This document shows, in pieces, positions 9,512-62,605 of a DNA stretch of 64,000 nt; position 1 is the first letter of the stretch; the number at the start of each line of letters is the position of its first letter. Below the pieces are notes generated by a model that worked only from the letters and a program-made list of their open reading frames with translations, was not told the DNA's origin and ran no database searches. The DNA comes from an uncultured Gammaproteobacteria bacterium (GTDB taxonomy: Bacteria; Pseudomonadota; Gammaproteobacteria; Steroidobacterales; Steroidobacteraceae). A program made the position numbers and the translations under genes. The stretch covers positions 3,884 through 67,883 of the forward strand of contig CAWDQL010000011.1 in NCBI GenBank assembly GCA_963804465.1, written 5' to 3'.

Positions 9512-9551
9512 GGCTGCTCATTCTGCGGAGCCGCACCTAAGGTCTACGCCC

Positions 9552-17415: not shown

Positions 17416-19698
<2,283 letters not shown>

Positions 19699-25900: not shown

Positions 25901-26204
25901 CGACGCCGTACTTGAAGACCACGCGCACAAACGACAGTCCGTAGAAGGATGTCGAGCGAATGACGTCGATCCCCGGGGTCGTGTACAAGCCGATTTCCAT
26001 CGGTCGCGTGTAGTAGCGCTCCATCTCCTCGGCCGACAGCCCCGGAGCCTGGGCTGTGATCTCGAGGATGACGGGGGTCGGATTGGGATAGGCCTCGATG
26101 TTGAGCGCCTTGAACGCAACGAGTCCCGCGCCGGCGAACAGCAGCAGACCGAACACCACCATGGCACGGCGGCTCAGGCAGAAGGCGACGAGGGACTTGA
26201 ACAC
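22980..26204 (-). CDS. RND efflux permease, CusA/CzcA-like (heavy-metal efflux family)
   Basis: 1074 aa, 12-TM RND. The N-terminus MFKSLVAFCLSRR...LNIEAYPNPTPVILEITAQAPGLSAEEME resembles the CusA/CzcA family. Substrate is not determinable from sequence alone. Confidence 0.85.
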   Translation of the reverse strand: MFKSLVAFCLSRRAMVVFGLLLFAGAGLVAFKALNIEAYPNPTPVILEITAQAPGLSAEEMERYYTRPMEIGLYTTPGIDVIRSTSFYGLSFVRVVFKYGVDFHFAYAQAAIALQQNVNLPGGVTPQIQQNSTTGEIYRYQVVGPKHFGLTNLRTVEDWIVRRRLLTIPGIVQVNSWGGPSKQFEVEVDPHKLEGYNLSVAQVLGALGNANANVGGREIRVGQQSINIRGVGLIDDGGNDDLTRGSRLDDIQDIVLTQSGGVPVQIKDVARVSVGFVPRLGIWGHDSEDDAVAGIVVMSRTEKTADMLPKVKAEIDSMNHDGSLPPGVRLVPIYDRGALVDVTTHTVLHNLAFGCLLVFLIQWIFLGDLRSAIIVGVNIPFALLFAIIALVARGESANLLSLGAVDFGIIVESAVILVENVFRNFQAPLAERQGLLQRLARGEWGPDPSTTPHHATPVHGWTDRLRLILVSAVQVDRAVFFAALIVAAAFVPLFTMQGVEGAIFGPMARTYGYALAGALIATFTVTPTLASLLLPEHVAESETLIVRALHRLYDPVLRFVLARRSVFIVAGLVALAAAAWLVPRLGSEFLPALEEGNYWIRASMPMTLSLEDGEAATRKMRAILKRFPEVVTVFSQHGRPDDGSDASPFSNVELFAVLKPQEQWPAGLTKEQLTDRINAMFQRELPGVNFNFSQYIQDNIEEAISGVKAVNSVKIIGPNLETLTQLAERVREEMSHIRGITDLGVFPVLGQPNLDIKVDRGRAARYGLNTGDVNTVIQAATAGASATTVLEGDRQFDIAVRYPKDFRDSVQSIGNIRVAAATGAGTNAYIPLRELAAIDVDTGAAWIYHESNQRFIPVKFSVRERDLGSTVAEAQERIARDVKLPSGYRLVWAGEFGQLQAAKERLAIVIPVSLVLILGLLYALFNSARECLLALLGIPFVIAGGIFALYLFGLSFSISAAIGFVSLFGVAVMIGILMITTFTQQRRLTHSADEAMLRAATRVMRPLLMMSLSAGIGLLPAALSTGIGSEVQRPLAAVVVGGMLLGSILLLVVVPACYMPFLGRDSFAVPEAHT

Positions 26205-26235
26205 GGAGCGGGGCTGCGACTTGCTCAGGAAGCGG

Positions 26236-27225
26236 TCAGTCGCTCGGCGGGGCCTCGAGCAGATTGCTCAGGAAAACTCCGCCCTCGGTCACTGCGAGCT
26301 CGTTGGCCTTGAGTCCTGAAAGCACCTGATAGCGTCCGTCGCGCTGGAGGCCGAGCGTGAGAGAGCGCTCGGCGAAGTGGCGTTGATCGGTCGTGACCCA
26401 GGTGATCATCGAGCCATCGCCCTCGCGAACGACGGCGGTAGTGGGGACGGCGAGGCTCTTCACGGGCTCTGCGGTGCGGATAACGATAGTGGCGAGCATT
26501 CCGGGCCGAAGGTCGCCCTTCGGATCCTCCACTCGGGCGCGCGCGGTCAGGCGGTGCGTGTTTGGGTCAATCGTCGAGTAGACCCTCGCCACGCGGCCGA
26601 TGTACTCGCGATCGGAATAGGCGGGGACCTTCACGGTGACGCTCTGTCCGGTGCGTACCCGCGGGCTGTCGGTTTCGGGGACGTTGGCAATCACCCACGT
26701 GGTGTGAGCAGCTGTTCCGGGCGAATCGAACTGGCCGGTCGCAACCATGCGATCGATCTCGGCGTCCGTCTTGCCGAGCGCGCGCAGCGCATCACGGGCG
26801 GCTTTGACAGCGGCCGCCGCGGTCTGTTGTGCGGCGATGGCTCCCTCGAGTTCTTTAGGTGCGATGCCATTCGCCTCGCCCAAGGACTGCGCGCGCATTA
26901 GCTCCTTGCGGGTCATCTCGAGATTCGCTGCGGCGCTGATGAGGGTGGCCTCTGCCTGGATGACCGCAGGATCTTCATCGAAACTGACCGTGCCGACGGT
27001 CTCGGACTCGACGGCGAAGGAAAATGTACCCACAGGCTCGACCTTGAGGGCACTGCGCTGCTCGGGAGACAAGTCGAGCGCTTTGGCGGCGGGGGCCGCG
27101 GGGCCCGGCCCCGAAGTACCCGGATCAGCAGCGGACGGCCCAGGGCTGCGGCGACAGCCGAACGCGAGCAACGCAAGGCCGGTCGCTGCGCTGATCAGCA
27201 GAATGCGGCGGGCAGAATTCAGCAT
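26236..27225 (-). CDS. RND efflux periplasmic adaptor (membrane fusion protein)
   Basis: Start at the ATG at 27225 (MLNSARRILLISAATGLALLAFGC). Coiled-coil hairpin plus beta-barrel regions (GQSVTVKVPAY..., GMLATIVIRT). Confidence 0.85.
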   Translation of the reverse strand: MLNSARRILLISAATGLALLAFGCRRSPGPSAADPGTSGPGPAAPAAKALDLSPEQRSALKVEPVGTFSFAVESETVGTVSFDEDPAVIQAEATLISAAANLEMTRKELMRAQSLGEANGIAPKELEGAIAAQQTAAAAVKAARDALRALGKTDAEIDRMVATGQFDSPGTAAHTTWVIANVPETDSPRVRTGQSVTVKVPAYSDREYIGRVARVYSTIDPNTHRLTARARVEDPKGDLRPGMLATIVIRTAEPVKSLAVPTTAVVREGDGSMITWVTTDQRHFAERSLTLGLQRDGRYQVLSGLKANELAVTEGGVFLSNLLEAPPSD

Positions 27226-27375
27226 ATCGGTCGGCAATAGATAAGAGAGGGCATCGGGGATAGCGCCCCACGGAGACTGCAGACGGTCAGGGCCTGCCGG
27301 CAGTCTAGGGAGCCGGCGTGAGCAAGGGGGTGAAAAGAGCATTACCGATCGGTAATGCTCGCGGCGCGAAAGACT

Positions 27376-41275: not shown

Positions 41276-41453
41276 GAGGATTCTCCCGCTGCGTTCTGTG
41301 GCCCGTGGATCACCACGGGTGAGAGTGTGAGACGCTTGCGGGGTGCTGATAAGTGGGTCTAAATTGATATAATTCATACGGTGGACGTATGAATTGGGAT
41401 GGTGCGCCCGTCTGCGGGCCCGGCCGCGTCAAGCCTCAACGACAGGAGATACC

Positions 41454-42389
41454 ATGGATCGCCTCGCCTTGATGACGTCGTTCGTCCGCGCGGTGGAGAC
41501 CGGGAGCTTTTCAGCCGTGGCGCGAGAGCTGGGGACCACCCAGCCCAATATCAGTCGCCACATCGCCTCGCTCGAGCAGCATCTCGGCACCCGGTTGCTG
41601 CATCGCTCGACGCGCAAGTTGACTCCGACCCCCGAAGGCGAGCGCTACTACGCTGATACCCGTCGCGTGCTCGATGCGATCGCCGAAGCGGAGTCCAACG
41701 TTCGCGGCCAGGAGATACCCAGCGGCGTGCTGCGTGTAGCTTGTCCGACGCTTCTCGGACGCTCGTACCTGCTGCCTCGCGTGAAGACCTTTCTGAATCG
41801 TTACCCTGAGGTGGAGCTGGATCTGCAGATCGGCGACCGCTTTATCGATCTGATCGAAGAGGGCGTGGACGTAGCCATTCGCATTGGCGCACTCAAGGAC
41901 AGTGCGCTCAAGGCGCGCCGCATCGGGATGGGCGAGCGCGTGTGCGTCGCTGCCCCGGACTATCTAGCGCGACACGGGGCGCCAAAGGTGCCGACCGACC
42001 TAAAGAGGCATGACTGCATCCTCTACACATTGTTGTCGTCTGGTCATGTCTGGCCATTCAAGGATCGTGACGTCGCCGTGCACGGTCGCTTCAGAGTCAA
42101 CACCCCGGATGGGATACTCGCTGCAACCTTGGACGGGCTCGGAATTGCCTACTCGCCGGTGTGGTTGTTTGAAGACGCGCTGCTGGATGGTCGAGTGCAA
42201 CTGCTTCTGGAGGACTATCCAGGACCACCGACTCCGATCCAGATGATCTACCCCGAGCGGCGGCTCCTGCCTCAGCGAGCGAAGGTGTTCATGGATTTTG
42301 TTGCGGAAGAATTCGCCCACGAGCCGGCGCTGAACGAGGGGGCAGTTGCCCAACTGAGAAGCCGCAGGCGGCGCCCCAACAAGCGCTGA
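41454..42389 (+). CDS. LysR-family transcriptional regulator
   Basis: Start at the ATG at 41454. FSAVARELGTTQPNISRHIASLEQHLGTRLLHRSTRK HTH plus a LysR substrate-binding domain. Confidence 0.9.
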   Translation: MDRLALMTSFVRAVETGSFSAVARELGTTQPNISRHIASLEQHLGTRLLHRSTRKLTPTPEGERYYADTRRVLDAIAEAESNVRGQEIPSGVLRVACPTLLGRSYLLPRVKTFLNRYPEVELDLQIGDRFIDLIEEGVDVAIRIGALKDSALKARRIGMGERVCVAAPDYLARHGAPKVPTDLKRHDCILYTLLSSGHVWPFKDRDVAVHGRFRVNTPDGILAATLDGLGIAYSPVWLFEDALLDGRVQLLLEDYPGPPTPIQMIYPERRLLPQRAKVFMDFVAEEFAHEPALNEGAVAQLRSRRRRPNKR

Positions 42390-42469: not shown

Positions 42470-42527
42470 GGCTGCGAAGTCGGAACGCACGAGGAGTACG
42501 ACAAGATCGACGCGGAGACAGTGTGAT
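42470..42527 (+). pseudogene. Last ~15 codons of a HigB-family toxin gene
   Basis: Hand translation gives ...GCEVGTHEEYDKIDAETV*, matching the conserved HigB_toxin C-terminus (..FVGTHAEYDKID..). The stop overlaps the antitoxin start (GTGTGATGA). The upstream sequence shows no HigB similarity. Confidence 0.45.
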
Positions 42528-42900
42528 GAAAGCCACCTTGTTCGTCATTGAAAATGACAGAGATCACGCCGAGGCGAAGGCGTTGATCAAGACGCTCATC
42601 GGATCCGAGGATGCCGCGGATCAGGCGCGCATGACAGCTCAGGCACGTCTGATCGAGGCCTACAAGCGCGCCCGCTGGCCGCGGCGCACGCCGTCGCTGC
42701 CGGACCTCCTTACCTACTTAATGGAGCAGCACGGTCTTCGCGGGCTGATTTGGTACCACTTCTGAGGACGCCCAGCCGGTCTTCTGAACTCAACAGCGTG
42801 TCTCCAGATGGCGGCCATAGGACCACTGGGCCTGTTGCTATCCGGTCACTTCTGATTGTTCGATGTCTGAAATGTGACAGTGACCGAGGCCTTCTTATCA
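42523..42900 (+). pseudogene. HigA-type (XRE HTH) antitoxin gene with multiple frameshifts
   Basis: ORF 42523..42765 reads KATLFVIENDRDHAEAKALIKTLIGS...RLIEAYKRARWP...LLTYLMEQHGLR. The expected continuation ADLVPLL..PSRSSE.. is in the next frame (ORF 42750..), and a further shift follows (..LQMAAIGPLGL..). Confidence 0.55.
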
Positions 42901-43109
42901 GCGAAGGATTTTCGAAGGAATTTGCAGAGTTACAGCGCAATCCAATACTGGCCGGCTGCGCTTTGCACAAACCCGCACGGCGACCCAAGCTCCCCAGCTA
43001 GCGTGAAATGCCGCGCGTGCCACCTTTGACATCTGACGGTGCAGGGCGTATTTATTTCTTCGGTCGGGAACGCTAGAACAAGACTAAACAGTATCCGCGG
43101 GAGACTCAG

Positions 43110-44546
43110 ATGACCTCACGCGAGTTAAGCTTTGAGTTTTTTGCCGCTGTGAGGCTGTTACGACTTGGCTCCCTGGCCACGTTGGTCCTCGGCGGATCGG
43201 CGCTGATGCTCGTTTCAATGCCGGCACAAGCCGTCCCACCTTTCGCCCGGCAGACGGGTTTGGCCTGCGAGGCCTGCCATACAGTACCCCCGGAGCTGAC
43301 GGCATTCGGCCGGCGCTTCAAGCTCAACGGATACACCCTGACCACGAGACCACCGCTGGTCCAGGACGTCGACGACTACAAGCGGAACACGGTATGGCTC
43401 TCCGATCTGCCGGGACTCGGCATCCTGTTGCAGGCCACCTACAACCATTACGACCGGGCGCCACCCGATAGCCAGGTGCCTGGCGCCACTGCGCAGAGCG
43501 AGAATCTCGAGTTTCCACAGCAATGGAGCATCATCGCCGCCGGGGCGGTCACCGACCACGTCGGTGGCTTTCTGCAGATGACCTATACGCAGCCCAGCGG
43601 GACGTTCGGCGTCGATAACACCGAGATCAGATATTCGGACCACACGGATAACAATGATTGGGTCTGGGGCTTGCTGGCCAACAACAATCCGGGCAACCAG
43701 GATGTATGGAACTCGGTTGGGGCGTATCCCACCCTCGACTTCTCCAACCAGTCGCTCTGGAGTTCGGGAGGAATCGCCGGCGCCGCCCTGTCTGGGCCGT
43801 TCTTTGAGGGCCTTGGGGGGTTGGTAGCCGGTCCGACCGCCTACGTCTGGTACAAGGATTCGTTTTATCTTGGACTGTCCGAGTATCACGCCGCCGTGTC
43901 CGGCAGTGTGAGCACCACGCTCGACAGCAGCAACCTCGCCGTGGGCGGCGGCGTCGTCCAGAATTGGGCCCCGTATTGGCGCGCCGCCTATGAGCACGAC
44001 TGGGGCTACAACGCGATATCGGTTGGCACCAGCGGCATGTACACCAAGTTCACGCCGAGCCTCATCGCGGGCCAGACAGTCGACCCCGGATTCATCAACC
44101 GCTATCTGGATGTGAGCGTTGACACGCAGTACCAATACAACGGTCAACACAACAATGTCTCGTTCCTCGCCCGCTACACCCATGAGACCCAGGAGAACGA
44201 CCCCGGGCTGGTGCCGACCTATTTCAGCAACTCGGTCGATCATCTCGACGCATGGAACGTGACGGCAACGTATTACTACAACCGTCACTATGGCGGCCTG
44301 ATCAACTTCGCTCGCACCACCGGTACTTCCGATGCCACCTTCTATGGAGGTAGTGGCTCACCGGGCAACCAGTACGAGGTGTTCGAGCTCGACTGGCTGC
44401 CCTGGTTCAACTTCAGGTTCATGCTGCAGTACAACGTTTACCAGGTCGTCAACAACAACCAGAACCCGTTCATTCTCTTGCAGGCAAGCCATCCCAAGGC
44501 ATCGGACAACAACACGTGGGATTTGGGCCTATGGATGGACTTCTGA
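43110..44546 (+). CDS. Cyc2-like fused monohaem cytochrome-porin (outer membrane)
   Basis: 478 aa. Signal peptide ends AQA|VPPF. PPFARQTGLACEACHT carries the CXXCH directly after the cleavage site, then FGRRFKLNGYTL. About 420 aa of alternating-polarity strands follow, rich in Y/W/G/N, and the C-terminal residue is Phe (LGLWMDF), as in OM beta-barrels. Confidence 0.6.
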   Translation: MTSRELSFEFFAAVRLLRLGSLATLVLGGSALMLVSMPAQAVPPFARQTGLACEACHTVPPELTAFGRRFKLNGYTLTTRPPLVQDVDDYKRNTVWLSDLPGLGILLQATYNHYDRAPPDSQVPGATAQSENLEFPQQWSIIAAGAVTDHVGGFLQMTYTQPSGTFGVDNTEIRYSDHTDNNDWVWGLLANNNPGNQDVWNSVGAYPTLDFSNQSLWSSGGIAGAALSGPFFEGLGGLVAGPTAYVWYKDSFYLGLSEYHAAVSGSVSTTLDSSNLAVGGGVVQNWAPYWRAAYEHDWGYNAISVGTSGMYTKFTPSLIAGQTVDPGFINRYLDVSVDTQYQYNGQHNNVSFLARYTHETQENDPGLVPTYFSNSVDHLDAWNVTATYYYNRHYGGLINFARTTGTSDATFYGGSGSPGNQYEVFELDWLPWFNFRFMLQYNVYQVVNNNQNPFILLQASHPKASDNNTWDLGLWMDF

Positions 44547-45214
44547 TGAAAACCCTGACAAGTAATGTGGTCATGGTCGCCGCGATCGCACTCACGGCCA
44601 CAACCGTTCGTGATGCACCTGCGGCGCCGCTGCCGCCTGTAGGCGGCACGACGAGCGTCGTGCCGCCTGATGCCTCGACTTTGGACGCTCGGGCGCTGGT
44701 GAGCATGGCCTGCTCCAAGTGCCATGGCGCTAACGGAGTCAGCATCTCGCCGCTCTTTCCTATTCTGGCCGCACAGCGACCGGGCTACATCGAGATGGAG
44801 TTACAGCTATTTCGGCAGCGTGAGCGCAGCGATCCCCACGCGCGCGCCTTCATGTGGGGGATAGCGCGAGCTCTTACTGACGAGCAAATCGAGGGGCTCG
44901 CGCAGTACTTCTCGAGCCAACCACCCGCGAGCGGCACGCCGTCGCGCGACCCAGCCTTGGCCGAGAAGGGCAAGAGGATCTATGAAAACGGGGTGCCGGA
45001 GCGTGACATTCTCGCTTGCCTTCCCTGCCACGGTCCCAACGCCGAGGGAGTGCGCACATTTCCACGGCTGGCCGGCCAGCATCGAGACTATCTTGCGCGA
45101 GAACTGCACGAGTTCACCGGTCAGCTGCGCGAAAGCGAAGTCATGCATCGCTTCACTCAAAACCTCACCGCGGGTGAGATCGCCGCAGTGACCGAGTATC
45201 TTGCCTCCAAGTAG
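44546..45214 (+). CDS. Periplasmic dihaem cytochrome c4-type protein
   Basis: The ATG at 44546 overlaps the preceding stop. Signal peptide, then two CXXCH motifs (CSKCHGANG, CLPCHGPNAEG) in two ~90-aa repeats. Confidence 0.8.
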   Translation: MKTLTSNVVMVAAIALTATTVRDAPAAPLPPVGGTTSVVPPDASTLDARALVSMACSKCHGANGVSISPLFPILAAQRPGYIEMELQLFRQRERSDPHARAFMWGIARALTDEQIEGLAQYFSSQPPASGTPSRDPALAEKGKRIYENGVPERDILACLPCHGPNAEGVRTFPRLAGQHRDYLARELHEFTGQLRESEVMHRFTQNLTAGEIAAVTEYLASK

Positions 45215-45219
45215 ATCCT

Positions 45220-46008
45220 GTGTCGGAGAGGGAAGCGATGAATAGCCGAACAAGCGGAGGAATGCAGTGCTCGCGCCGGTCGTTTTGGCTGCCTGCGGGA
45301 TTGGCGGTGCTCGGGATCGCCGGTTCATTGGCGGCGCTGCCCGCATCAGCCGACTACCAGGTGGTCGCCGTCACTAACGGCGGCACCATCGACGGTGTGG
45401 TTACGCTCTCAGGCGCCGCGCCCGCCATGCCGCCGATCAAGGTCGACAAAAATCCGGATTACTGCGGAGCGAGTATTCCCGATCCGACGTACACGGTCGG
45501 TTCTTCCGGCGGGTTGGCGAACGTGATTGTCTATCTCAAGGACATCACCAAGGGCAAGGCTGCGCCCAGCGAACCGCTGGCGTTGGTCAACAACCATTGC
45601 ATGTTCTCGCCGCGAGCGCAGGGAGCGATGGTCGGGGAACAGATCAAGGTCTCCTCGGACGACCCGGTTCTGCATAACACCCATCTGCGATTCGGCCAAA
45701 ACAATGCGACGATTTTCAACATCGCGCTGCCTTTCAAGGGATTCTCCGTGACCAAGCCGCTGCCGGAGCGTCCGGGGCTGATCGATGTCAAGTGCGACGT
45801 ACACGAGTGGATGCGCGCGTGGATCATGGAACTCGACAATCCCTACTACGCGACGAGTGATGCTGACGGTCATTTCACCATCAAGGATGTGCCTGCGGGC
45901 AGCTACACGCTGGAGATCTGGCATGAGGCCGCAGGTGAGAAATCCCAGCCGGTGGTGGTCGCGGCCGGCAAAACCACCAAGTTGAAGATCACGGTAGCGG
46001 CAAAATGA
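45220..46008 (+). CDS. Tat-exported cupredoxin-like protein with CarboxypepD_reg-like beta-sandwich
   Basis: Twin-Arg signal CSRRSFWLPAGLAVLGIAGSLAALPASA. Candidate type-1 Cu ligands are H in DDPVLHNTHL and C-x2-H-x2-M in VKCDVHEWM (amicyanin-like spacing). The C-terminal DADGHFTIKDVPAGSYTLEIWHE is CarboxypepD_reg-like. Confidence 0.55.
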   Translation: MSEREAMNSRTSGGMQCSRRSFWLPAGLAVLGIAGSLAALPASADYQVVAVTNGGTIDGVVTLSGAAPAMPPIKVDKNPDYCGASIPDPTYTVGSSGGLANVIVYLKDITKGKAAPSEPLALVNNHCMFSPRAQGAMVGEQIKVSSDDPVLHNTHLRFGQNNATIFNIALPFKGFSVTKPLPERPGLIDVKCDVHEWMRAWIMELDNPYYATSDADGHFTIKDVPAGSYTLEIWHEAAGEKSQPVVVAAGKTTKLKITVAAK

Positions 46009-46072
46009 GCCAACTTCATCTCCGGGAGTTGCCCTGGCGGGTAAGGGATCGGCCTCATCGCGAGAGGTACAT

Positions 46073-46825
46073 ATGTTAGTTCGCGTCGCCCAATTGGTTC
46101 CGATGGTCGCGGGTCTGTTGCTTGCAGTTGGCACCGCCGGGGCGGACACCGGGGACGCTCGCAACGGCAAGGCGGTGTACGAACGTTGGTGCATCGGGTG
46201 TCACGGCGCGGAAGGCAACGGCCAAGGCGAGTCCGCCCAGTACATGAGCCCCAAGCCGCGAGACTATCGCGAAGGTACCTTTAAATGGCGCTCCACGCCG
46301 TCCGGCTCGCTGCCGCTCGACTCCGACCTCGAACACACCCTGCTGAACGGGGTCTACGGCACGTACATGCCGAGCTGGCGCTTCCTCGGTGAGCGGGAGC
46401 GTGAGGACGCAATCGCCTACATCAAGACCTTTGCGCCGCGATTCGCGAGTGAGCAACCCCAGAAACCGATCAGCATCCCGCCCAATCCGGGTTATGGCGA
46501 TGAGTCGGTCAAACGCGGAGCGGCGATCTACCAGAAGTACAACTGCGGACAGTGTCACGGCGCCGGCGGGCGCGGCGACGGGCCCTCCGCGCGGGGGCTC
46601 AAGGATGACTGGGGCAACGCCATCGTTCCGTACGACCTGACCAAGGGACACATCAAGTGCGGCGACGAGCCCACCGATATCTATCGAGTGTTCATGACTG
46701 GTTTATCAGGCACCCCCATGCCGTCGTTCGCCGACTCAATGAGCCCCGCGGACGCTTGGGATCTGGTGCACTTCATAGAGAGCTTGAGTCCGGAGTACCC
46801 GAAGAACGTGACCGCGGCTCGTTAA
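46073..46825 (+). CDS. Dihaem c-type cytochrome (paralogous to the C-terminal half of the CcoO fusion)
   Basis: Signal/anchor, then CIGCHGAEGNGQG and CGQCHGAGGRGDG. FKWRSTPSGSLPLDSDL parallels FKFRLTQGSLPTDGDL in ORF 48327..49934. Confidence 0.8.
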   Translation: MLVRVAQLVPMVAGLLLAVGTAGADTGDARNGKAVYERWCIGCHGAEGNGQGESAQYMSPKPRDYREGTFKWRSTPSGSLPLDSDLEHTLLNGVYGTYMPSWRFLGEREREDAIAYIKTFAPRFASEQPQKPISIPPNPGYGDESVKRGAAIYQKYNCGQCHGAGGRGDGPSARGLKDDWGNAIVPYDLTKGHIKCGDEPTDIYRVFMTGLSGTPMPSFADSMSPADAWDLVHFIESLSPEYPKNVTAAR

Positions 46826-46851
46826 AGACCCGACAGAACCAATAATCAGGG

Positions 46852-48330
46852 GTGAGCGCCATGCCAGAGGCGGGAACAGCAGCAGAGGCGTTGCACGGCC
46901 CATACGCGGGACTGGATCTGGATGCACTGGTCGATTGGCCGGTGGTGCGAGCCTGGCTGTACTGGGGCATGTTCTGGCTGATGGTCGCACCCACGGTGGG
47001 CGCGTTGCTCGCCGGGATGTTCGACTATCCCGAGTATCTCGGCACCAATCTGGCGCTGACCTTCGGGCGACTGCGCCCGGTGCATGTCAACGGCGTCATC
47101 ATGGGCGCATTCTCCGGCCTCTTTATCGGGGAATGCTATTACCTGGTGCCGCGTCTGTGCGGGGTGCGGGTCGCGTTCAATCGCTGGGGCGTCGTTTTCG
47201 CCTGGGTGTGGAACGTGTTCCTGGCGGCCGGACTGATCGCGATACCGCTCGGCTACAACCACGGGCTCGAGGCCGGCGAGCTGCCGCTGCTCGCGGAAAT
47301 TCCGATCTTTATCTGCACTGCCGTCGTCACTTTGCAGTTTCTGACGACGATCGGCCGGCGGCTGGATCCGGCGCTCTACGTGGCACTCTGGTACCTGATC
47401 GGTGCCTTCGTGTGGACGTCGCTGAATCTGGTATTGGGCAGTTTCATCCTGCCCTACACGATCGCGGGCATCAACAGTGCGGCGTTCCACGGACTCTATA
47501 TTCACTATATCGTCGGCCTGTGGATCACGCCGGCGGGTTACGTGTTGATCTACTATTTTCTCCCGCTCAGCGTGCGCAACCCGCTCTACGCTCACAAGCT
47601 CTCGCTGGTTGGGTTCTGGTCGCTCGCCTTGTTTTATCCCTTCGTCGGCATTCACCACTATCTCTACAGCCCGATCGCCGACTGGGCCGAGACGCTGGCG
47701 ATCATCACCTCGATGCTCCTGATCATTCCGGTGTGGACCGTGCTGGTGAACTTCTTCGGCACGGTGAACGGCCGCTGGCGCGAGTTCGGGGCGAATCTGC
47801 CGGCGAAATTCCTGATCATGGGCGCGATCATGTACTTCTTCGGCTGCTTTCAGGGCTCGCTCGAGGCGTTGCGCTCGATCCAGCAGCCAACCCATTTCAC
47901 GGACTTCGTGATTTCACATTCGCATCTCACGGTGTTCGGAACCTTCGTGGTGTGGGCGATGGGCGGATTGCTGTACATGTGGCCGCGCATGTGCGGGCGA
48001 GAACTGTGGTCGTTCAAACTCGGCAACTGGTCTTTTTGGCTGATCACGGTCGGCATCTCCACCATGGGTATTGTGCTGAGCGCCGCGGGTCTCCAGCAGG
48101 GCTTCCAGTGGATGAACGGCGCCGAGTGGGTGGACACGGTGGTGCAGATGCGGGCGTATTGGCTGGTACGCACCCTGGCGGGAATCTCGATGGATGTCGG
48201 GATGTCGCTCCTGGTCATCAATCTCATGATGACCGCTCTCAATAGGTCGGATAAGGCAATTGGCTTTAAGCCCGCCAGGCGTGAGCCAGACGGCTTGACT
48301 CCGGCTGCGGCCGGGGAGCTCGCCCGATGA
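46852..48330 (+). CDS. ccoN: cbb3-type (C-family) haem-copper oxidase catalytic subunit
   Basis: 492 aa, 12+ TM. RLRPVHVNG (haem b His), AAFHGLYIHY (helix-6 CuB His) and FYPFVGIHHYLY (Tyr six residues before the HH pair, i.e. the cbb3 cross-link Tyr plus CuB His pair). FVISHSHLTVFG is the HxH for haems b3/b. Confidence 0.9.
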   Translation: MSAMPEAGTAAEALHGPYAGLDLDALVDWPVVRAWLYWGMFWLMVAPTVGALLAGMFDYPEYLGTNLALTFGRLRPVHVNGVIMGAFSGLFIGECYYLVPRLCGVRVAFNRWGVVFAWVWNVFLAAGLIAIPLGYNHGLEAGELPLLAEIPIFICTAVVTLQFLTTIGRRLDPALYVALWYLIGAFVWTSLNLVLGSFILPYTIAGINSAAFHGLYIHYIVGLWITPAGYVLIYYFLPLSVRNPLYAHKLSLVGFWSLALFYPFVGIHHYLYSPIADWAETLAIITSMLLIIPVWTVLVNFFGTVNGRWREFGANLPAKFLIMGAIMYFFGCFQGSLEALRSIQQPTHFTDFVISHSHLTVFGTFVVWAMGGLLYMWPRMCGRELWSFKLGNWSFWLITVGISTMGIVLSAAGLQQGFQWMNGAEWVDTVVQMRAYWLVRTLAGISMDVGMSLLVINLMMTALNRSDKAIGFKPARREPDGLTPAAAGELAR

Positions 48331-49934
48331 ACGCCCGCATGGTCGCACTGGTGGCCGGGGTCGGCTTCTTCTTCCTTGCGCTGGTCACCCAGGGTGTGCT
48401 GCCCTTTTTCGAGCCCTCGGCGACCACCAACCACGTAACGGCCGTGATCCGCAACGATCTCGGCCAGCTTAAATGGATGGCAACGTCGGCCACCGACTAC
48501 ACGCCCCTCGAGAACCGAGGCAGGCTCATCTATCTGCGCGAGGGCTGTTGGTATTGCCATTCGCAGTACGTGCGGCCGGTGACCGGCGAGACGCGTCGCT
48601 GGGGACCGGTGAGCGAAGCCGGTGAATATGCGTACGACGTGCCGCATCTGTTCGGTACACGGCGTATCGGTCCGGACCTGACCCGCGTCGGGCTCAAGTA
48701 CGGCGACGAGTGGCACCTGGCGCATTTCTGGGATCCGCGCATGCTCACGCCCGAATCGATCATGGACCCTTATAGGGGCCTGTTCGATGCACCGTCGGAG
48801 GCGGTGAAGATCGTCGCGAGAACACCCTCGGGGCAGACGCTCGAGCGCACTGCAGTGACCGAGAAGCTGTTCGATTTCGCCAGCAAGGAGCAGGTGAAGC
48901 TCACGCCGAATGCCGACGGCCTGCTGTTCGTCCCGCTGGCCGCACAGGGCAAATACCCGGTGATCTGGACGCCCAACAAGGAATACGCCGGCGGCAGCGT
49001 CAAGCTTGCCATCGAGACCCAGGATGTCGAGGCGCTGATCGCCTACGTGCAGAAGCTCGGCATGAACCGCGGCAAGTGGCGGGATCTGTTCGAGCCGCAG
49101 CTGATGGACGGGGCCGGGTTGAGCATGCCGCGCTCGCAGGAATGGATTGAGCATGGCAAGGAGGTCTACGAGCGGCGCTGCATGGGTTGCCACGGTGTGC
49201 ATGGCGACGGCAATGGGCCGGCCGCAACCTTCCTGTACAAGCAACGGCCGCGCAATTTCACCCAGGGCGTCTTCAAGTTCAGGCTGACCCAGGGGTCGCT
49301 CCCGACCGATGGCGATCTGCTGCGCACCATAACGCGCGGGGTGCGCGGCACCGCGATGCCCCCCTGGTACAATTTGCCGCTCAATGATCGGCTCGCCGTG
49401 ATGCAGTACATCAAGTACGTGCTGGCGGTGGACCGCTCCGATCCCACGAAGCCCCAGTCCTACTTCCTCGAGCAGCCGCCCGACGTGCCCTTGTATATCC
49501 CGCCGCCGCCCGCCCCGACCCCGGCCCTCGTCGCGCACGGCAAGGAGGTGTGGCAGAACGCGAAATGCTGGCAGTGCCACGGCACGACCGGCAAAGGCGA
49601 TGGCGAGAGCGCGGTGGGGCTCGATGACGACTTCAATTTCCCGATTCGCCCCGCGGACCTCACCGGCGGCCAGTTCAAATCCGGCTCTTCGGTGACCGAC
49701 ATCTTCAGGACCATCTCCACGGGGTTCAGCGGAACACCGATGCCCTCCTACCACGACTCGTTTCCGGATGCGGACCGCTGGGCGTTGGCTTACTATATTC
49801 TGACGCTTTCCGCCTTCACTGACCCGCTGACGGGAGAGCCGTTGAAGATCTCTGCCGCGGATCGTGTGGCACTGGACAATCCGATGCTGGAAACGCCAGG
49901 TCCAGAGCAGGCCTATGGACTCATACAACCTTAG
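48327..49934 (+). CDS. CcoO fused to a dihaem cytochrome c domain (trihaem subunit)
   Basis: The N-terminal 200 aa are CcoO-like (TM anchor, YLREGCWYCHSQYVRP, GTRRIGPDLTRVGLKYGDEWHLAHFWDPR, SIMDPY). The C-terminal half has CMGCHGVHGDGNG and CWQCHGTTGKGDG. 4-nt overlap with ccoN. Confidence 0.85.
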   Translation: MNARMVALVAGVGFFFLALVTQGVLPFFEPSATTNHVTAVIRNDLGQLKWMATSATDYTPLENRGRLIYLREGCWYCHSQYVRPVTGETRRWGPVSEAGEYAYDVPHLFGTRRIGPDLTRVGLKYGDEWHLAHFWDPRMLTPESIMDPYRGLFDAPSEAVKIVARTPSGQTLERTAVTEKLFDFASKEQVKLTPNADGLLFVPLAAQGKYPVIWTPNKEYAGGSVKLAIETQDVEALIAYVQKLGMNRGKWRDLFEPQLMDGAGLSMPRSQEWIEHGKEVYERRCMGCHGVHGDGNGPAATFLYKQRPRNFTQGVFKFRLTQGSLPTDGDLLRTITRGVRGTAMPPWYNLPLNDRLAVMQYIKYVLAVDRSDPTKPQSYFLEQPPDVPLYIPPPPAPTPALVAHGKEVWQNAKCWQCHGTTGKGDGESAVGLDDDFNFPIRPADLTGGQFKSGSSVTDIFRTISTGFSGTPMPSYHDSFPDADRWALAYYILTLSAFTDPLTGEPLKISAADRVALDNPMLETPGPEQAYGLIQP

Positions 49935-49950: not shown

Positions 49951-50127
49951 ATGGCAGACTACGAAATACTCGGCCCCTACGCGCTGGCAATCCTGATGGG
50001 ATTGGGCTCCATATGTATCTTCATCTGGGGAGTCATGGGTGGAGCCCTGACTGAGACCGACCGGGCAGCCCTCGACTTCTATTACGCGGAGATGGCAAAT
50101 GACCAATTCAAGGACTCACACACATGA
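49951..50127 (+). CDS. CcoS-like small membrane protein (58 aa, below the ORF-track cutoff)
   Basis: Hand translation gives MADYEILGPYALAILMGLGSICIFIWGVMGGALTETDRAALDFYYAEMANDQFKDSHT. One TM followed by an acidic tail, as in CcoS/FixS. The stop overlaps the next start (ATGA). Confidence 0.45.
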   Translation: MADYEILGPYALAILMGLGSICIFIWGVMGGALTETDRAALDFYYAEMANDQFKDSHT

Positions 50128-50315
50128 CGGGTCATGACGCTCCGAACGCCGGGCACGAGACGCACGACCTGCATGAATACGCCGGTGGCTACATAAAGGC
50201 GCGCGAAGGGATCATTCCGGTCTGGTTGTTGGTTCTCTACTTCGGGCTGTTCGCGTGGTCGTGCTACTACCTCGTGCACTACTGGGGCGGACTCGGGCCC
50301 GGTCGAATCGGGTAG
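50124..50315 (+). CDS. Stand-alone FixP_N-like (CcoP N-terminal) membrane domain
   Basis: 63 aa. HETHDLHEYAGGYIKAREGIIPVWLLVLYFGLFAWSCYYLVHYW resembles the CcoP N-terminal domain (HxWDG..E..NPLP.WW...F..T..F...Y). Confidence 0.5.
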   Translation: MTGHDAPNAGHETHDLHEYAGGYIKAREGIIPVWLLVLYFGLFAWSCYYLVHYWGGLGPGRIG

Positions 50316-50505: not shown

Positions 50506-50631
50506 ATGCTGGCTCAAACTGCATTCTCTTTTGCCAGGGCTAGCTCGCTGCAGGTCGTCGCGTTCGTCGGCTTCGCGGTCTTTATGGTCGGCTTCTTTAT
50601 CTGGGTCGCTTTGCTGGCGCGCAGAAAATAG
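50506..50631 (+). CDS. Possible CcoQ-like 41-aa single-TM peptide
   Basis: GAGAGGA lies 7 nt upstream of the ATG. MLAQTAFSFARASSLQVVAFVGFAVFMVGFFIWVALLARRK is a TM helix ending in W..RRK, like FixQ. The call rests on position and shape only. Confidence 0.3.
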   Translation: MLAQTAFSFARASSLQVVAFVGFAVFMVGFFIWVALLARRK

Positions 50632-50686
50632 CGGCCAGTCACCTGCCTTGCCCCGAAGGCGGGCGCTTTGTCGGGGCACATCGGCC

Positions 50687-51418
50687 ATGACCTACTACGC
50701 GCTGCTGTTCGTCGCCGGCATCGCGGGCAGTTTTCATTGCATCGGGATGTGCGGAGGCTTTGCCTGCGCACTGGGGGGTGATCCGCGCGGACCCGGCGCC
50801 ACCGCCGTCCGTCATGCGCTCTACAATACCGGAAGGTTGACCACCTACTGTTTCCTGGGAGGGCTCGCCGGCGGCCTGGGCTGGGCGATCTACATGTGCC
50901 TGGGGACAAGGTCGCAACTGGGAATTCCGCTCCTCAGCGAGTCGCTCAACGCTGCGCAGCGGGCTCTGGCCGTGATAGCCGGGCTCCTGATGATCCTCAT
51001 GGCGCTGCAGTTCTTCGGCTTCCGAGGCTTGCACCGCGTCGCGACCGGATTCGGCGGCTCGACGCTCGTCATCGCGTTGCGGAGCCTCCTCACCAGGCGG
51101 GGTCACGGCGCGCCGCTTGCCTTCGGTGTGCTCAACGGCTTTCTGCCGTGCCCCCTGGTCTACGCCATGCTCGCCCAGGCCGCGAGTACCTTTGACGTCC
51201 TGTCCGGCTGTCTCACCATGGCGGCGTTCGGTCTGGGAACCTTCCCGACCATGCTCGCCATGGGCGGACTCGGCCGGCTGCTTGCGCCCACGTGGCGGCA
51301 GCGCGGCGTCCGGCTGGCTGGGAGCTTCATCCTGGCACTGGGGCTCGTCACGCTCGGCCGGGGCATCGTCCCGATGGCGGCCGGCCACGGCCTGCACCAC
51401 CTCTGGCATTTCGCATGA
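50687..51418 (+). CDS. DsbD_2/TauE-like membrane protein with HCxxMCGG motif
   Basis: Start at the ATG at 50687. FHCIGMCGGFACAL and GFLPCPLVYAML motifs, 6-7 TM. The stop overlaps the ATPase start (ATGA). This family is commonly found next to ccoI/ccoS. Confidence 0.65.
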   Translation: MTYYALLFVAGIAGSFHCIGMCGGFACALGGDPRGPGATAVRHALYNTGRLTTYCFLGGLAGGLGWAIYMCLGTRSQLGIPLLSESLNAAQRALAVIAGLLMILMALQFFGFRGLHRVATGFGGSTLVIALRSLLTRRGHGAPLAFGVLNGFLPCPLVYAMLAQAASTFDVLSGCLTMAAFGLGTFPTMLAMGGLGRLLAPTWRQRGVRLAGSFILALGLVTLGRGIVPMAAGHGLHHLWHFA

Positions 51419-53607
51419 CGGCGCCTCCCGAGGGTCTGTGCCGCCACTGCCTGCTGCCGCTCGGGCGGCGTGGGTTTGCCCGCACCGTGAACGGCGAGAA
51501 TTGCCAGTTCTGTTGCTATGGCTGCTGCATCGCCTATCAGGTGAAGAGCGGCAGCGGCGAGGCGTCGGAGGCGGCGTGGCTCCTGGTGCGCCTCGGCGTG
51601 GGCAGCTTTTTGTCGATGAACATCATGCTGTTCAGCCTCTTAGTGTATTCGGGGGCGTTCACCGGGGCCGACCGGCGCGTGCTTCCCACGATTCATCTGC
51701 TACTCTGGGGGCTCGCGACGCCGGCGGTAGTGATCCTCGGCGAGCCTTTTCTGCGTGAGACTTGGTCGCAGGCTCGGCGCGGGCAGTTGAGCTCGTCCGC
51801 GCTCATCATCCTCGGCTCGCTTGCCGCTTACATCTATTCCACTCTCGCAGTCTTCCGGCTGGGCGGCCATATTTATTTCGATACCGCCGCGATGGTGCTG
51901 ATGCTGTTTACGCTCGGCCGCTATCTCGAAGCGGCAGGGCGCGCGCGGGCGTCGCGCGATCTCGCGCCGCTGTTGGCTGCGGAAAGCGAATCGGCCACGG
52001 TGGTTGAAGGGGTCGAAGAGCAGCGCCGGCCGGTGCGGGAGGTGCGTGCTGGGATGCTGGTGCGCGTCAAGCCGGGCGAACGGATCCCGGTCGATGGCCT
52101 GATCGTGGATGGCTGCTCGCATACTGATGACTCAGTCATCAGCGGCGAGAGCAGGCAGATCGCGAAGACGGTCGGCGGCTCGGTCCTCGCAGGCAGCATC
52201 AATCTTGACGGTCCGTTGCTGATCCGCAGCAGCGGCTCTGGAGACGAAAGTCGCTGGGCACAGATCTGCCGGTCGGTCCGAGACGCTTTACGGCAGTCGA
52301 GCCGCACGCAGCGTATCGCCGATCGCGTCGTGGGCGCGTTCGTGCCGTTCGTGCTCGCCCTCGCCGGCGTAACCCTGGCTTTTTGGGCACAGCGCCTGCC
52401 GCTCGATCAGGCGATGCTCGCTGCTCTCTCGGTGCTGGTGGTGGCCTGTCCGTGTGCGGTCGGCCTGGCCGCCCCGATGGCGCACTCGCTCGGCATCGGG
52501 CAGTTGGCCCGACACGGTTGCCTGGTCCGCAGTCCGGGCGCGCTCGAGGCACTGGCCGTCACGCGCCTGATCGCCTTCGACAAGACCGGGACGCTGACTC
52601 TGGGCTGGCCGCAGCTCGTCGATCTTGCGATCGATGGGGTAGGGGAGGATGAGGTACTCGCCCGGCTGGCGGGTCTGGAGCGCCATTCCGAGCATGGCTT
52701 GGCGCGTGCCATCGCTCTGGCAGCCAGCGCGCGCGGCCTCGATCCGATCGCCACCGAGGATGTCCGAATCGTTCCCGGACGCGGCTTGCGCGGCGTTGTC
52801 GATGGCGAGTGGGTCGCCGCCGGGAGTGCGGCGTTGATGCACGAGCTGGGCTGGCCGCTGCCGCCGGCCCTGGTCGAGCGCGCCGAGGCGATGGCGACGA
52901 GCGGCCATTCGGTGGTGTTCATCGGTTGGAGCGAGAAAGCCTGCGCCGGGCGGGCCCGAGCCGCGCTGTCGTTCGACGACACGCCGCTCCCCGAGGCGCG
53001 AGCCACCATTGAGGCATTGCGCGCTCTCGGAATCCGGGTGATGTTGCTGACCGGCGATCACGCGGGTGCAGCCGCGCGTGTCGCGGCCACGGTCGGCGTG
53101 GACGATTGGCAGGCCGGCCTCCTGCCGGAGGCCAAACGGATCGCTCTCGATCAATGCCGACCAAGCCACGGCGCCGTGGCGATGGTCGGCGACGGCCTGA
53201 ATGACGGCCCCGGACTGGCGTGGGCGGATGTCGGCATCGCCGTTGGCTCGGCGACCGATCTGGCACGCGAAACCGCCGATCTGGTGCTTCCTCGGGGCGG
53301 CCTCTGGCTGCTGCCCTGGGTGGTCGGCCGGGCCCGTGCGGTGCGTGCGAGTATCCTCAGCAACCTGGCATGGGCATTCGGCTACAACCTGATCGCACTG
53401 ACCTGCGCCGCGCTCGGGCTGCTGCAGCCGATCCTGGCGGCGGCTGTCATGGCCGGTTCGAGTCTGTTGGTCGTGCTGAACTCGCTGCGCCTGGAGCGAC
53501 TTCCCGGGCCAAGTTATCCGAGCGCGCTGCAGTCATCTGCGGCCGAGCGAGCGGCGAGTGAGCCGCAGCCTAGAGAGCAAGCCCCTACTTTCAAGGCAGC
53601 GGCTTGA
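51415..53607 (+). CDS. ccoI: CcoI/FixI-type copper-translocating P1B-ATPase
   Basis: N-terminal Cys cluster CRHC...CQFCCYGCC, TM CPC (VVACPCAVG), DKTGTLT and GDGLNDGP. Confidence 0.85.
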   Translation: MTAPPEGLCRHCLLPLGRRGFARTVNGENCQFCCYGCCIAYQVKSGSGEASEAAWLLVRLGVGSFLSMNIMLFSLLVYSGAFTGADRRVLPTIHLLLWGLATPAVVILGEPFLRETWSQARRGQLSSSALIILGSLAAYIYSTLAVFRLGGHIYFDTAAMVLMLFTLGRYLEAAGRARASRDLAPLLAAESESATVVEGVEEQRRPVREVRAGMLVRVKPGERIPVDGLIVDGCSHTDDSVISGESRQIAKTVGGSVLAGSINLDGPLLIRSSGSGDESRWAQICRSVRDALRQSSRTQRIADRVVGAFVPFVLALAGVTLAFWAQRLPLDQAMLAALSVLVVACPCAVGLAAPMAHSLGIGQLARHGCLVRSPGALEALAVTRLIAFDKTGTLTLGWPQLVDLAIDGVGEDEVLARLAGLERHSEHGLARAIALAASARGLDPIATEDVRIVPGRGLRGVVDGEWVAAGSAALMHELGWPLPPALVERAEAMATSGHSVVFIGWSEKACAGRARAALSFDDTPLPEARATIEALRALGIRVMLLTGDHAGAAARVAATVGVDDWQAGLLPEAKRIALDQCRPSHGAVAMVGDGLNDGPGLAWADVGIAVGSATDLARETADLVLPRGGLWLLPWVVGRARAVRASILSNLAWAFGYNLIALTCAALGLLQPILAAAVMAGSSLLVVLNSLRLERLPGPSYPSALQSSAAERAASEPQPREQAPTFKAAA

Positions 53608-55042: not shown

Positions 55043-56359
55043 CTAGCCGGGGATAAACATCCTCACCGCGGCCGCACCCATGACCGCGGTCGCAATCCAG
55101 CCGAGGATGATGAGCGGCCGACTCGCGGTGTAATCGCCCATCACGGACTTTTTTGATACCAGCAGGATGATGACGATCATGAGGGGTACTGCGACGACCC
55201 CATTAATGACCGCGCTCCAAAATAGGGCCTTCATCGGGCTGATCGGCGAATATTGGATGCCGAGACCCACGAGCACGCTGACAGCGATGACGGCGTAGAA
55301 TCCGCGAGCGTCAACTGCCTTGCGTTCAAGACCCCAGTTCCACCCCATGGCCTCGCAAAGTGCGTAGGCGCCAGAGCCCGCGAGCACCGGCACGCCGATC
55401 AATCCGACGGCGAGAATACCTAGGGCGAAGAGTAGGTAGGCAAAGTTACCCGCGAGCGGACGAAGAGCGCTCGCCGCCTCCGCTGCAGTATTGATGTCGG
55501 TTATTTGCGCGACGTTGAGCGTCACGGCGGTCGCCAGAATGATGAAGTAGGCTGTGACATCCGAGTAGAACATGCCGCTCCAGGTGTCCCAGCGGATGCG
55601 GTGCAGTTCCGAAGCTGCGTGGCTAGCATCGCGCACGAGCGGTGCGCTTCCCCGTGCGGCCTGCATGTCCTCGACCTCTTCGGATGCCTGCCAGAAAAAC
55701 AGGTAGGGACTGATAGTGGTGCCGAATACGCCGACCACTACCGCGGCCGTGTTGGAATTCACTGTGAAGCGGGGCCACACCGTGCGAAGCGCCACTTCAC
55801 CCCAGGGGACGTGAACCGTGAAAAGGACGGCCGCGTAGGCCAGCAGCGCGAGCGTCAACCACTTCAAGAAGAAAACGTAACGGTGATAGGGGACGAACAC
55901 CTGCAGCAGCAACGTTCCGATCACCAAGAACCCCGTCATGAGATGACGATTGAAACCCGTGACCAGCTCTGCGACTTCCCCCATCGCAGCAACGTCGGCC
56001 GCGATGTTGAGGGTATTGGCGATGAGCAGCAGCAGCACGACGCCTTGGAGCACCCCGGGGGGAAACGCGGTCTTGATATTCGCAGCGAGTCCTTTCCCGG
56101 TGACCCGGCCGATGAACCCGCACATCGACTGGATCGCGGCCATCAGCGGGAAGGCCAGCGGCATTGTCCATAGCATGTTGAGGCCGAACTGCGCGCCCGC
56201 CTGGGAGTAGGTCGCTATGCCGCTTGGATCGTCGTCGGCGACACCGGTAATGAGCCCAGGTCCCACGCGCGCCAAGGGATGCTCTTTCAGGCGACTCCAA
56301 AGGACCCGGAGTGCGGACTGACGCTGCGGTTCATGGCTTCCATCTCGAGAGCTGCGCAT
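55043..56359 (-). CDS. NRAMP-family transporter with non-canonical metal-site residues
   Basis: 438 aa, 11 TM. The TM1 motif is GPGLITGVADDDPSGIATY (DPSG instead of DPGN). The TM6 motif is GTTISPYLFFW (T-x-x-S instead of A-x-x-M). Confidence 0.85.
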   Translation of the reverse strand: MRSSRDGSHEPQRQSALRVLWSRLKEHPLARVGPGLITGVADDDPSGIATYSQAGAQFGLNMLWTMPLAFPLMAAIQSMCGFIGRVTGKGLAANIKTAFPPGVLQGVVLLLLIANTLNIAADVAAMGEVAELVTGFNRHLMTGFLVIGTLLLQVFVPYHRYVFFLKWLTLALLAYAAVLFTVHVPWGEVALRTVWPRFTVNSNTAAVVVGVFGTTISPYLFFWQASEEVEDMQAARGSAPLVRDASHAASELHRIRWDTWSGMFYSDVTAYFIILATAVTLNVAQITDINTAAEAASALRPLAGNFAYLLFALGILAVGLIGVPVLAGSGAYALCEAMGWNWGLERKAVDARGFYAVIAVSVLVGLGIQYSPISPMKALFWSAVINGVVAVPLMIVIILLVSKKSVMGDYTASRPLIILGWIATAVMGAAAVRMFIPG

Positions 56360-58452: not shown

Positions 58453-58527
58453 TGGCTCCCCGGGTAGGAATCGAACCTACGACCAACGGATTAACAGTCC
58501 GATGCTCTACCGCTGAGCTACCGGGGA
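58453..58527 (-). tRNA. tRNA-Asn (anticodon GUU)
   Basis: Minus strand reads TCCCCGG TA GCTC AGCGGTA GAGC A TCGGA CTGTTAA TCCGT TGGTC GTAGG TTCGATT CCTAC CCGGGGA G CCA. 75 nt, full cloverleaf, encoded CCA. Confidence 0.9.
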
Positions 58528-62530: not shown

Positions 62531-62605
62531 AGGCGCGTAGCTCAGTGGTAGAGCATCACCTTGACATGGTGGTGGTCGGTGGTTCGATCCCACTCGCGCC
62601 TACCA
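62531..62605 (+). tRNA. tRNA-Val (anticodon GAC)
   Basis: AGGCGCG TA GCTC AGTGGTA GAGC A TCACC TTGACAT GGTGG TGGTC GGTGG TTCGATC CCACT CGCGCCT A CCA. 75 nt cloverleaf. Confidence 0.9.

Follow-up and report, generated by a model that had tools for sequence, protein, structure and literature searches.

This study focused on a gene at positions 43110-44546 (+ strand) of a 64,000-nucleotide (nt) stretch of contig CAWDQL010000011.1, hereafter the window, which derives from an uncultured gammaproteobacterium of the Steroidobacteraceae. Judged by its sequence, the gene product is a genuine member of the Cyc2 family of monohaem cytochrome-porin fusions, and it is probable (roughly 0.75) that it is a Cyc2-type outer-membrane iron oxidase that feeds a cbb3-type oxidase by way of a Cyc1-like cytochrome. 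Genes for that cytochrome and for the oxidase follow on the same strand. A fused cytochrome-porin of the Cyc2 type had been proposed earlier from the DNA letters alone (the original prediction), and this identity was borne out both by the features of the translated protein and by full-length homology to canonical Cyc2.

The cyc2 gene and its membership in the Cyc2 family

The features of the gene and its product are as follows.

43099-43104, + strand: Shine-Dalgarno sequence GGGAGA, read from the sequence, 5 nt before the cyc2 ATG
43110-44546, + strand: cyc2 homologue, monohaem cytochrome-porin fusion (reading frame and motifs, family conservation, barrel model, alignment with canonical Cyc2)
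43110-43232, + strand: predicted Sec signal peptide, residues 1-41 (inspection; n/h/c pattern and A-x-A rule)
43230-43298, + strand: Cyc2 signature A41-V-P-P-F-A-R-Q-T49, the predicted haem-attachment motif C53-E-A-C-H57, and P61-E-L63 (regular expression)
43413-44543, + strand: predicted 16-strand beta-barrel, residues 102-477, up to the beta-signal at Phe478 (AlphaFold2 model)

The open reading frame (ORF), with its stop codon included, specifies 478 amino acids (aa) when the signal peptide is counted, a size that the original prediction had considered suitable for Cyc2 and which exceeds the published minimum of 365 aa. The predicted signal peptide consists of an Arg-containing basic n-region, the hydrophobic stretch LGSLATLVLGGSALMLVSM, and an A-Q-A/V cleavage site (PAQA/VPP), in agreement with the AQA ending described earlier. 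The position of this site is kept in the alignment of homologues and matches SAWA/LP of canonical Cyc2. Both strings quoted in the original prediction occur in the translation, VPPFARQTGLACEACHT right after the predicted cleavage site, and FGRRFKLNGYTL as given. The protein has only two Cys residues, C53 and C56, both within the single CXXCH motif that is completed by H57, and C53 is the twelfth residue (residue 12) after the predicted cleavage site, in keeping with the earlier statement that the sole CXXCH lies within 15 residues of the mature N-terminus. The mature protein would comprise 437 aa (48.5 kDa, isoelectric point 4.6), in which Gly, Asn, Thr, Ser, and Tyr are abundant and Lys and Cys are scarce. 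Its C-terminus is LGLWMDF, the last residue being Phe478, as had been reported.

The sequence criteria for Cyc2 formulated by Keffer et al. 2021 (PMC8406198) are a signal peptide, a single CXXCH, the motif AxPxFAR[Q/K][T/Y] upstream of it (stated to be unique to Cyc2), PxL four residues downstream, and a length of at least 365 aa, to which a 16-strand porin is added as a structural criterion. All five sequence features are present in the window protein, the signal peptide by inspection, and the sixth was seen in the predicted model. The signature P-x-F-A-R-Q-T-G-x-x-C-x-x-C-H, which the original prediction had named as typical of Cyc2, agrees with these published criteria.

The comparison with canonical Cyc2 was made through the partner cytochrome. 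The best match in the PDB to the product of the gene after cyc2 was 1H1O (cytochrome c-552), with an E-value of 2.7e-33 compared to about 1e-22 for generic c4 cytochromes. We take 1H1O to be the c4 cytochrome of Acidithiobacillus ferrooxidans, the product of cyc1, and reference 45 of PMC10654088 supports this. Residues of 1H1O were used as a query over metagenome contigs, and in this way a locus (L083) was obtained in which Cyc1 is 99% identical to PDB 1H1O, a 490-aa gene precedes cyc1, and cup, coxB, coxA, and coxC follow it. The cup product matched AcoP (PDB 7Z3B) with an E-value of 9e-104, and the gene order agrees with the published rus operon (PMC10654088). The near identity of Cyc1, the identity of cup, and the gene order together identify L083 as a genuine rus operon of Acidithiobacillus, in which the first gene is the canonical cyc2. 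The window Cyc2 and this protein are 33% identical over 470 aa (BLASTP, E 8e-47), and the Cyc2 family profile aligned with it at an hhalign probability of 100% (E 4.4e-59, 433 columns), the alignment extending from the cleavage site to the final residue. In published tables, identity between accepted Cyc2 clusters is 17-23%, and that between A. ferrooxidans Cyc2 and its closest relatives among those listed is 27-30%. A value of 33%, set against the cross-cluster range, places the window protein well inside the Cyc2 family, and by sequence it most likely belongs to the cluster that contains A. ferrooxidans Cyc2. The same value implies that it is not a Cluster 1 Cyc2, a comparison made via published identities alone.

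The protein belongs to a large family. A word-indexed search returned 839 homologues. When 1.84 billion cluster representatives were searched exhaustively with a profile, 4578 clusters (at 50% identity) matched at E<=1e-3, of which 2041 had E<=1e-10 and 555 had E<=1e-30. In an alignment of 24 sequences, with identities down to 43%, the residues C53, C56, and H57 were invariant, as were A46-R-Q-T-G50, P61-E-L-T64, and G67-R-R-F70. A set of 79 full-length homologues was drawn from species-representative genomes together with two plasmid records. Every one had exactly one CXXCH and P-x-L at +4 (79/79 for both), while the strict form A-x-P-x-F-A-R-[QK]-[TY] was found in 71, most of the remaining eight being explained by a change of F to Y. 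The last residue was Phe or Tyr in 78 of the 79. A non-haem porin family with an unconserved CXXCH, the outcome that had been named as contradicting a Cyc2 assignment, is not what these homologues represent. Five proteins from the protein search (the P series) lacked the haem motif, but these also miss the N-terminal part of the alignment and are probably truncated gene calls.

Searches of Pfam, NCBIfam, and PDB sequences gave no match to the window Cyc2, whether the query was the sequence itself or a profile; this is no argument against membership, because those libraries contain no curated Cyc2 model. One homologue that is 64% identical to the window Cyc2 (P0033) carries the IMG name iron:rusticyanin reductase, which we take to be the Enzyme Commission name of Cyc2 (EC 1.16.9.1). 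P0033 (590 aa) has a long N-terminal extension before its signal peptide, as do the ORFs of three genome loci (L045, L049, and L061). In the locus ORFs the extensions are artefacts of extraction, since the first possible start codon was taken, and in P0033 a wrongly called start is more likely than an additional domain.

All of the genome loci examined for a Cyc2 homologue came from uncultured metagenome-assembled genomes (MAGs); these and the locus counts given below refer to the best 80 of at least 591 matching stretches in a scan of species-representative genomes. The closest named relatives among the matches listed were Steroidobacteraceae MAGs, at no more than 79% identity, and the close relatives derive from bog, palsa, SPRUCE peat, and Danish soil MAGs. 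Steroidobacteraceae MAGs bearing Cyc2 have already been published (MAG 28; PMC8357290). The window Cyc2 thus adds one member to a large and well-described family, and the kind of protein is not new.

More distant homologues occur in cultured bacteria. By tblastn, genes annotated as 'cytochrome C' on Ralstonia solanacearum megaplasmids, in Caballeronia and Paraburkholderia, and on Acidiphilium plasmids showed 27-33% identity (E 1e-18 to 2e-42), and a Ralstonia protein cluster (P0354) matched the Cyc2 profile with an E-value of 3.8e-79. The Ralstonia gene specifies AVPAFARQTGMACMACH…PEL and, as in the window, has a dihaem cytochrome gene directly downstream, but unlike the window there are no cbb3 genes within the 4 kb that were read. 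Ralstonia has been listed as a genus carrying Cyc2 homologues (PMC8406198), and Burkholderiales and Acidiphilium are connected to A. ferrooxidans Cyc2 in a published similarity network (PMC10654088). When the Acidiphilium-type plasmid homologue was itself used as a query, no named Acidithiobacillus was found among the best 120 matches. One plasmid record labelled Acidithiobacillus ferrooxidans YQ-N3 (CP084173.1; L081) gave match statistics to the window query identical to those of the Acidiphilium cryptum JF-5 plasmid NC_009469.1 (27.0% identity, E 3e-23, 110 bits). The Cyc2-like gene of this record has FAAQT in place of FARQT and adjoins a transposase, and its relatives are all from Acidiphilium, Acidocella, or Acetobacteraceae; the plasmid labelled as A. 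ferrooxidans may be of Acidiphilium origin or recently transferred.

The strand-rich region with abundant Tyr, Gly, and Asn that had been pointed out in the original prediction was modelled by AlphaFold2 on the homologue alignment, a check proposed at that time, and folded into a barrel of 16 long strands (each of at least eight residues) spanning residues 102-477. The mean predicted local distance difference test score (pLDDT) was 67 and the predicted template-modelling score 0.71, with block means in the strands mostly between 70 and 92. In Foldseek comparisons with the PDB, the best folds were those of 16-strand porins, namely OmpC, OmpF, Omp-Pst1, and OprP (2O4V), with E-values from 5e-10 to 1e-7 and target-normalised template-modelling scores of 0.5-0.65. 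OprP 2O4V is also the template reported for Cyc2 by Keffer et al. 2021 (PMC8406198). The likeness to these general porins is structural only: they lack a haem domain, share about 10-14% sequence identity with the window Cyc2, and have no detectable sequence homology to it.

A cyc1-like gene and cbb3 oxidase genes downstream of cyc2

The genes that follow cyc2, and one regulator gene that precedes it, are listed here.

44546-45214, + strand: dihaem c4-type cytochrome, Cyc1-like, with motifs CSKCH and CLPCH (1H1O match, Cyc1 identity, junction read)
45220-46008, + strand: conserved 262-aa protein, probable start at ATG 45238 (searches, alignment)
46073-46825, + strand: second dihaem cytochrome c, with motifs CIGCH and CGQCH (Pfam Cytochrom_C twice; PDB 6H5L_B, E 1.1e-55)
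46852-48330, + strand: ccoN, catalytic subunit of a cbb3-type (C-family) haem-copper oxidase (PF00115, E 2.8e-68)
48327-49934, + strand: fused ccoO-ccoP, a FixO domain and two cytochrome c domains with three CXXCH (domain searches, haem motifs)
49951-50315, + strand: two small membrane ORFs of 58 and 63 aa, tentatively assigned by weak FixS and FixP_N similarity (E 0.07 and 7e-4)
50531-53607, + strand: DsbD_2-family membrane protein and P-type ATPase (CcoI/FixI-like), start codons uncertain (Pfam)
41394-42389, + strand: LysR-family regulator, upstream of cyc2 (Pfam)

The genes from 43110 to 49934 lie on one strand with intergenic gaps of at most 65 nt. The stop codon of cyc2 overlaps the start codon of the next gene (ATG at 44546) in a TGATG at 44544-44548 (cttcTGATGaaa), an arrangement that suggests translational coupling. 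The product of this second gene is 35% identical to Cyc1 of the rus operon (E 9e-40), so that both cyc2 and its immediate neighbor have homologues in the same order in Acidithiobacillus. Scans for promoters, terminators, and FNR boxes near cyc2 gave nothing above chance.

The oxidase is of the cbb3 type. CcoN matched the cbb3 CcoN structures 9G6B and 3MK7 in the PDB at about 1e-50, compared to 1e-8 for NorB (nitric oxide reductase), and its score against the NCBIfam model TIGR00780 was 218 bits, under the cutoff of 583 bits. This sub-cutoff score means that ccoN is a divergent form and suggests a divergent cbb3 subtype. The start of the fused ccoO-ccoP overlaps the ccoN stop by 4 nt, and the DsbD_2-family protein and the P-type ATPase are probable cbb3 maturation genes. 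The PDB entry matched by the second dihaem cytochrome, 6H5L_B ('conserved hypothetical cytochrome protein'), also matches residues 271-494 of the fused CcoO-CcoP (E 1e-50), and by sequence the free dihaem cytochrome and the CcoP-like half of the fusion look like paralogous modules.

The 262-aa protein has a signal-peptide-like N-terminus and a C-terminal beta-sandwich of the CarboxypepD_reg/fn3_3 type, and has hundreds of close homologues in soil metagenomes. Its conserved residues are C82, C127, H152, H155, and C192-x2-H195-x2-M198, with Gln at H195 in one of 19 sequences. The H…C-x2-H-x2-M pattern, which resembles a type-1 copper loop, raised the idea of a copper protein of this type as a counterpart to AcoP or rusticyanin, a proposal that found no support: no cupredoxin match was obtained in Pfam or the PDB, hhalign against AcoP gave a probability of 1%, and a profile search of the PDB returned only beta-sandwich domains of carbohydrate-binding type. 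Its AlphaFold2 model was unusable (pLDDT 41).

Comparison of the loci revealed that the Cyc1-like gene directly follows the cyc2 homologue in 76 of 80, and that three of the four exceptions lie at contig ends. The cyc2 pair, the 262-aa gene, the dihaem cytochrome, ccoN, ccoOP, and the maturation genes were found together in 11 loci (L001-L003, L009-L014, L017, and L057), with the order of the 262-aa gene and second cytochrome swapped in seven of them. Across these 11 loci CcoN is 88-94% identical and Cyc2 only 46-78%, and across related loci the 262-aa gene stays with the cbb3 genes and not with cyc2. The difference in divergence, along with the distribution of the genes, points to two modules, a widespread pair of cyc2 and cyc1-like genes and a cbb3 cluster that includes the 262-aa gene, which are joined in this clade alone. 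In a limited literature search, no report came up in which cyc2 immediately precedes cbb3 genes.

The LysR gene stands upstream of cyc2 in only two of the 80 loci, at about 31-35% identity, and is not proposed as a regulator of cyc2, since it is not conserved beside it. Between the LysR gene and cyc2 there is an 80-aa ORF (42523-42765, + strand) that has no Pfam match, followed by a 344-bp non-coding stretch.

The resemblance to the rus operon of A. ferrooxidans (cyc2-cyc1-cup-coxBACD-rus) is considerable. Both Cyc2 proteins have a signal peptide, the sequence xPxFARQTG-x2-CxxCH-x3-PxL, a barrel, and an aromatic C-terminus, and in both cases cyc2 is followed by a homologous dihaem c4 gene and then by an oxidase operon on the same strand. 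The differences are that the window oxidase is of the cbb3 type (ccoN and fused ccoOP) rather than the aa3 type (coxBACD), that the cup position is occupied by a 262-aa protein unrelated to AcoP with no rusticyanin detected in the cluster, and that the cluster resides in an uncultured gammaproteobacterium of soil or peat, among organotroph-like neighboring genes, and not in an acidophilic lithoautotroph. Functionally the window cluster is comparable to a rus operon, without being one. Cluster 1 Cyc2 proteins, such as those of Mariprofundus ferrooxydans PV-1, Sideroxydans, and Gallionella, conform to the same criteria (PMC8406198), and the pathway proposed for them, from Cyc2 to Cyc1 to a cbb3 oxidase under microoxic conditions (PMC7029218), is also the one that would apply here.

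Proposed function and alternative explanations

In the proposed pathway, Cyc2 would be exported by Sec and its signal peptide cleaved, one haem c would be joined to C53 and C56 with H57 as axial ligand, and the remaining ~380 residues would form a 16-strand beta-barrel in the outer membrane, while the short haem domain at the N-terminus would sit within or at the pore. Fe(II) that is extracellular or enters the pore would be oxidised, with no Fe(III) formed inside the cell. The electron would pass to the putatively periplasmic, translationally coupled dihaem c4 cytochrome (Cyc1-like), and from there probably to the second dihaem cytochrome and the haems of CcoO-CcoP, to reach the cbb3 oxidase, which would reduce O2 at low oxygen tension. 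Transfer from Cyc2 to Cyc1 to a terminal oxidase is the published pathway model (PMC7029218), and the gene linkage seen in the window supports that model in its cbb3 form.

Several observations weigh against this reading. The alignment of Cyc2 sequences contains no invariant Met or second His (residues 42-100), H178 occurs in about 90% of those aligned, and the mature protein has no conserved Met, which means that the distal haem ligand is not evident from the sequence. The haem region (residues 27-100) had a pLDDT of about 30 in a model built without haem, so that the model does not establish its placement relative to the pore. No rusticyanin or other cupredoxin was detected among the genes of the cluster by Pfam and the other searches. 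The function of Cyc2 outside of the well-studied groups is unverified (PMC8406198), and the family also occurs in Ralstonia, Caballeronia, and Acidiphilium, which, like Paraburkholderia, are not known as iron oxidisers. The surrounding genes of the window are organotroph-like (lactate use, efflux, glutathione transferases), and no carbon fixation genes were seen among them. Finally, the linkage of cyc2 to the oxidase, found in only 11 of the 80 loci, is clade-specific.

Some of these same observations would be accommodated if the protein were a true Cyc2 that serves in Fe(II) detoxification, or in taking up electrons from other extracellular donors such as reduced humics or organically complexed metals. 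Such donors are plausible in peat and soil, the habitats of the relatives, the organotroph-like genes of the window fit a role that does not yield energy, and homologues are carried by bacteria such as Ralstonia. Keffer et al. allow for additional Cyc2 functions (PMC8406198), and in a lake study bacteria that carry cyc2 are proposed to exchange electrons with dissolved organic matter. The genetic coupling of cyc2 to a c4 cytochrome and to a cbb3 oxidase, which pumps protons, suggests instead that the electrons are kept for respiration, which argues for an energy-yielding role but does not prove it, and the closest characterised relative of the window Cyc2 is a bona fide respiratory iron oxidase. 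On balance, detoxification or use of another donor appears unlikely, although it is the alternative to be taken most seriously.

The direction of electron flow is not fixed by the sequence, and outer-membrane cytochrome conduits are reversible in principle, so that delivery of electrons outward to Fe(III) or other extracellular acceptors, in the manner of MtrCAB, might be considered. MtoAB, PioAB, and MtrCAB likewise provide an outer-membrane electron route between extracellular iron and the periplasm, but they consist of two to three separate proteins, with a 26-strand porin around a decahaem cytochrome (PMC10654088), whereas the window Cyc2 is a single polypeptide with one haem motif and a 16-strand model, on which grounds a MtoAB-type complex was rejected. 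There is no multihaem wire and no decahaem partner nearby, no gene with more than three CXXCH being present in the window cluster, and the genes to which cyc2 is joined specify a terminal oxygen reductase and not a quinol dehydrogenase of the CymA kind. Every characterised member of the Cyc2 family acts as an oxidase (PMC8406198, PMC7029218), and outward delivery is accordingly considered highly improbable. An ordinary diffusion porin with an incidental CXXCH and no haem is the least credible reading of all: the barrel does resemble general porins, and Pfam, NCBIfam, and PDB sequence searches name no family, but hundreds of genomes preserve the motif together with the signature that flanks it, the only Cys residues of the protein are the two of the motif, the homology to characterised Cyc2 is full-length, and a c-type cytochrome gene lies directly downstream in nearly every locus. 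The presence of the motif in all 79 homologues, with no other Cys in the protein, led to the rejection of this candidate. An iron oxidase of the Cyc2 type that donates electrons to the cbb3 oxidase remains the preferred reading.

A broader proposal, which is tentative and for which we would give somewhat less than even odds, is that in a soil and peat clade of Gammaproteobacteria, probably Steroidobacteraceae, the pair of cyc2 and cyc1-like genes and the divergent cbb3 oxidase form a co-transcribed respiratory module from iron to oxygen. Such a module would be an analogue of the rus operon with a high-affinity oxidase and without a cupredoxin, residing in otherwise organotrophic bacteria.

Other genes of the window and significance

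A gene for an Nramp-family divalent-metal transporter (55043-56359, - strand) lies about 1.4 kb past the last gene of the cluster. Homologues of this transporter (54-83% identity) were found within 10 kb of a cyc2 homologue in three other loci (L029, L045, and L056), and a link to the handling of Fe(II) or Mn(II) is possible. Elsewhere, the regions 7889-12285 (+ strand), 17416-19680 (- strand), and 21463-27342 (- strand) have the ordinary content of an aerobic organotroph, including a lactate permease and a LutB-type lactate-utilisation protein, a large KatG-like haem peroxidase, and a three-component resistance-nodulation-division efflux system adjoining a histidine kinase. Glutathione transferase genes are also present in the window, as are genes for tRNA-Asn (58453-58527) and tRNA-Val (62531-62605).

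No better marker gene for microbial iron oxidation is available than Cyc2, although its function has been verified in only three organisms. The locus tells nothing new about the kind of protein, and its one mildly interesting feature is the operon-like fusion of cyc2 with cbb3 genes, by which an outer-membrane oxidase, its c4 partner, and a high-affinity terminal oxidase are brought together in one same-strand run in an uncultured soil lineage. The 11 related genomes mark a clade suited to tests of iron-dependent respiration by organotrophs. With more than 4500 clusters at 50% identity and at least 591 genome stretches, the size of the family suggests that much potential iron oxidation in soil and peat is uncharacterised. 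If the proposed module is active, facultative microaerobic oxidation of Fe(II), or of reduced humics, would be widespread among soil heterotrophs that are abundant but are not regarded as iron oxidisers.

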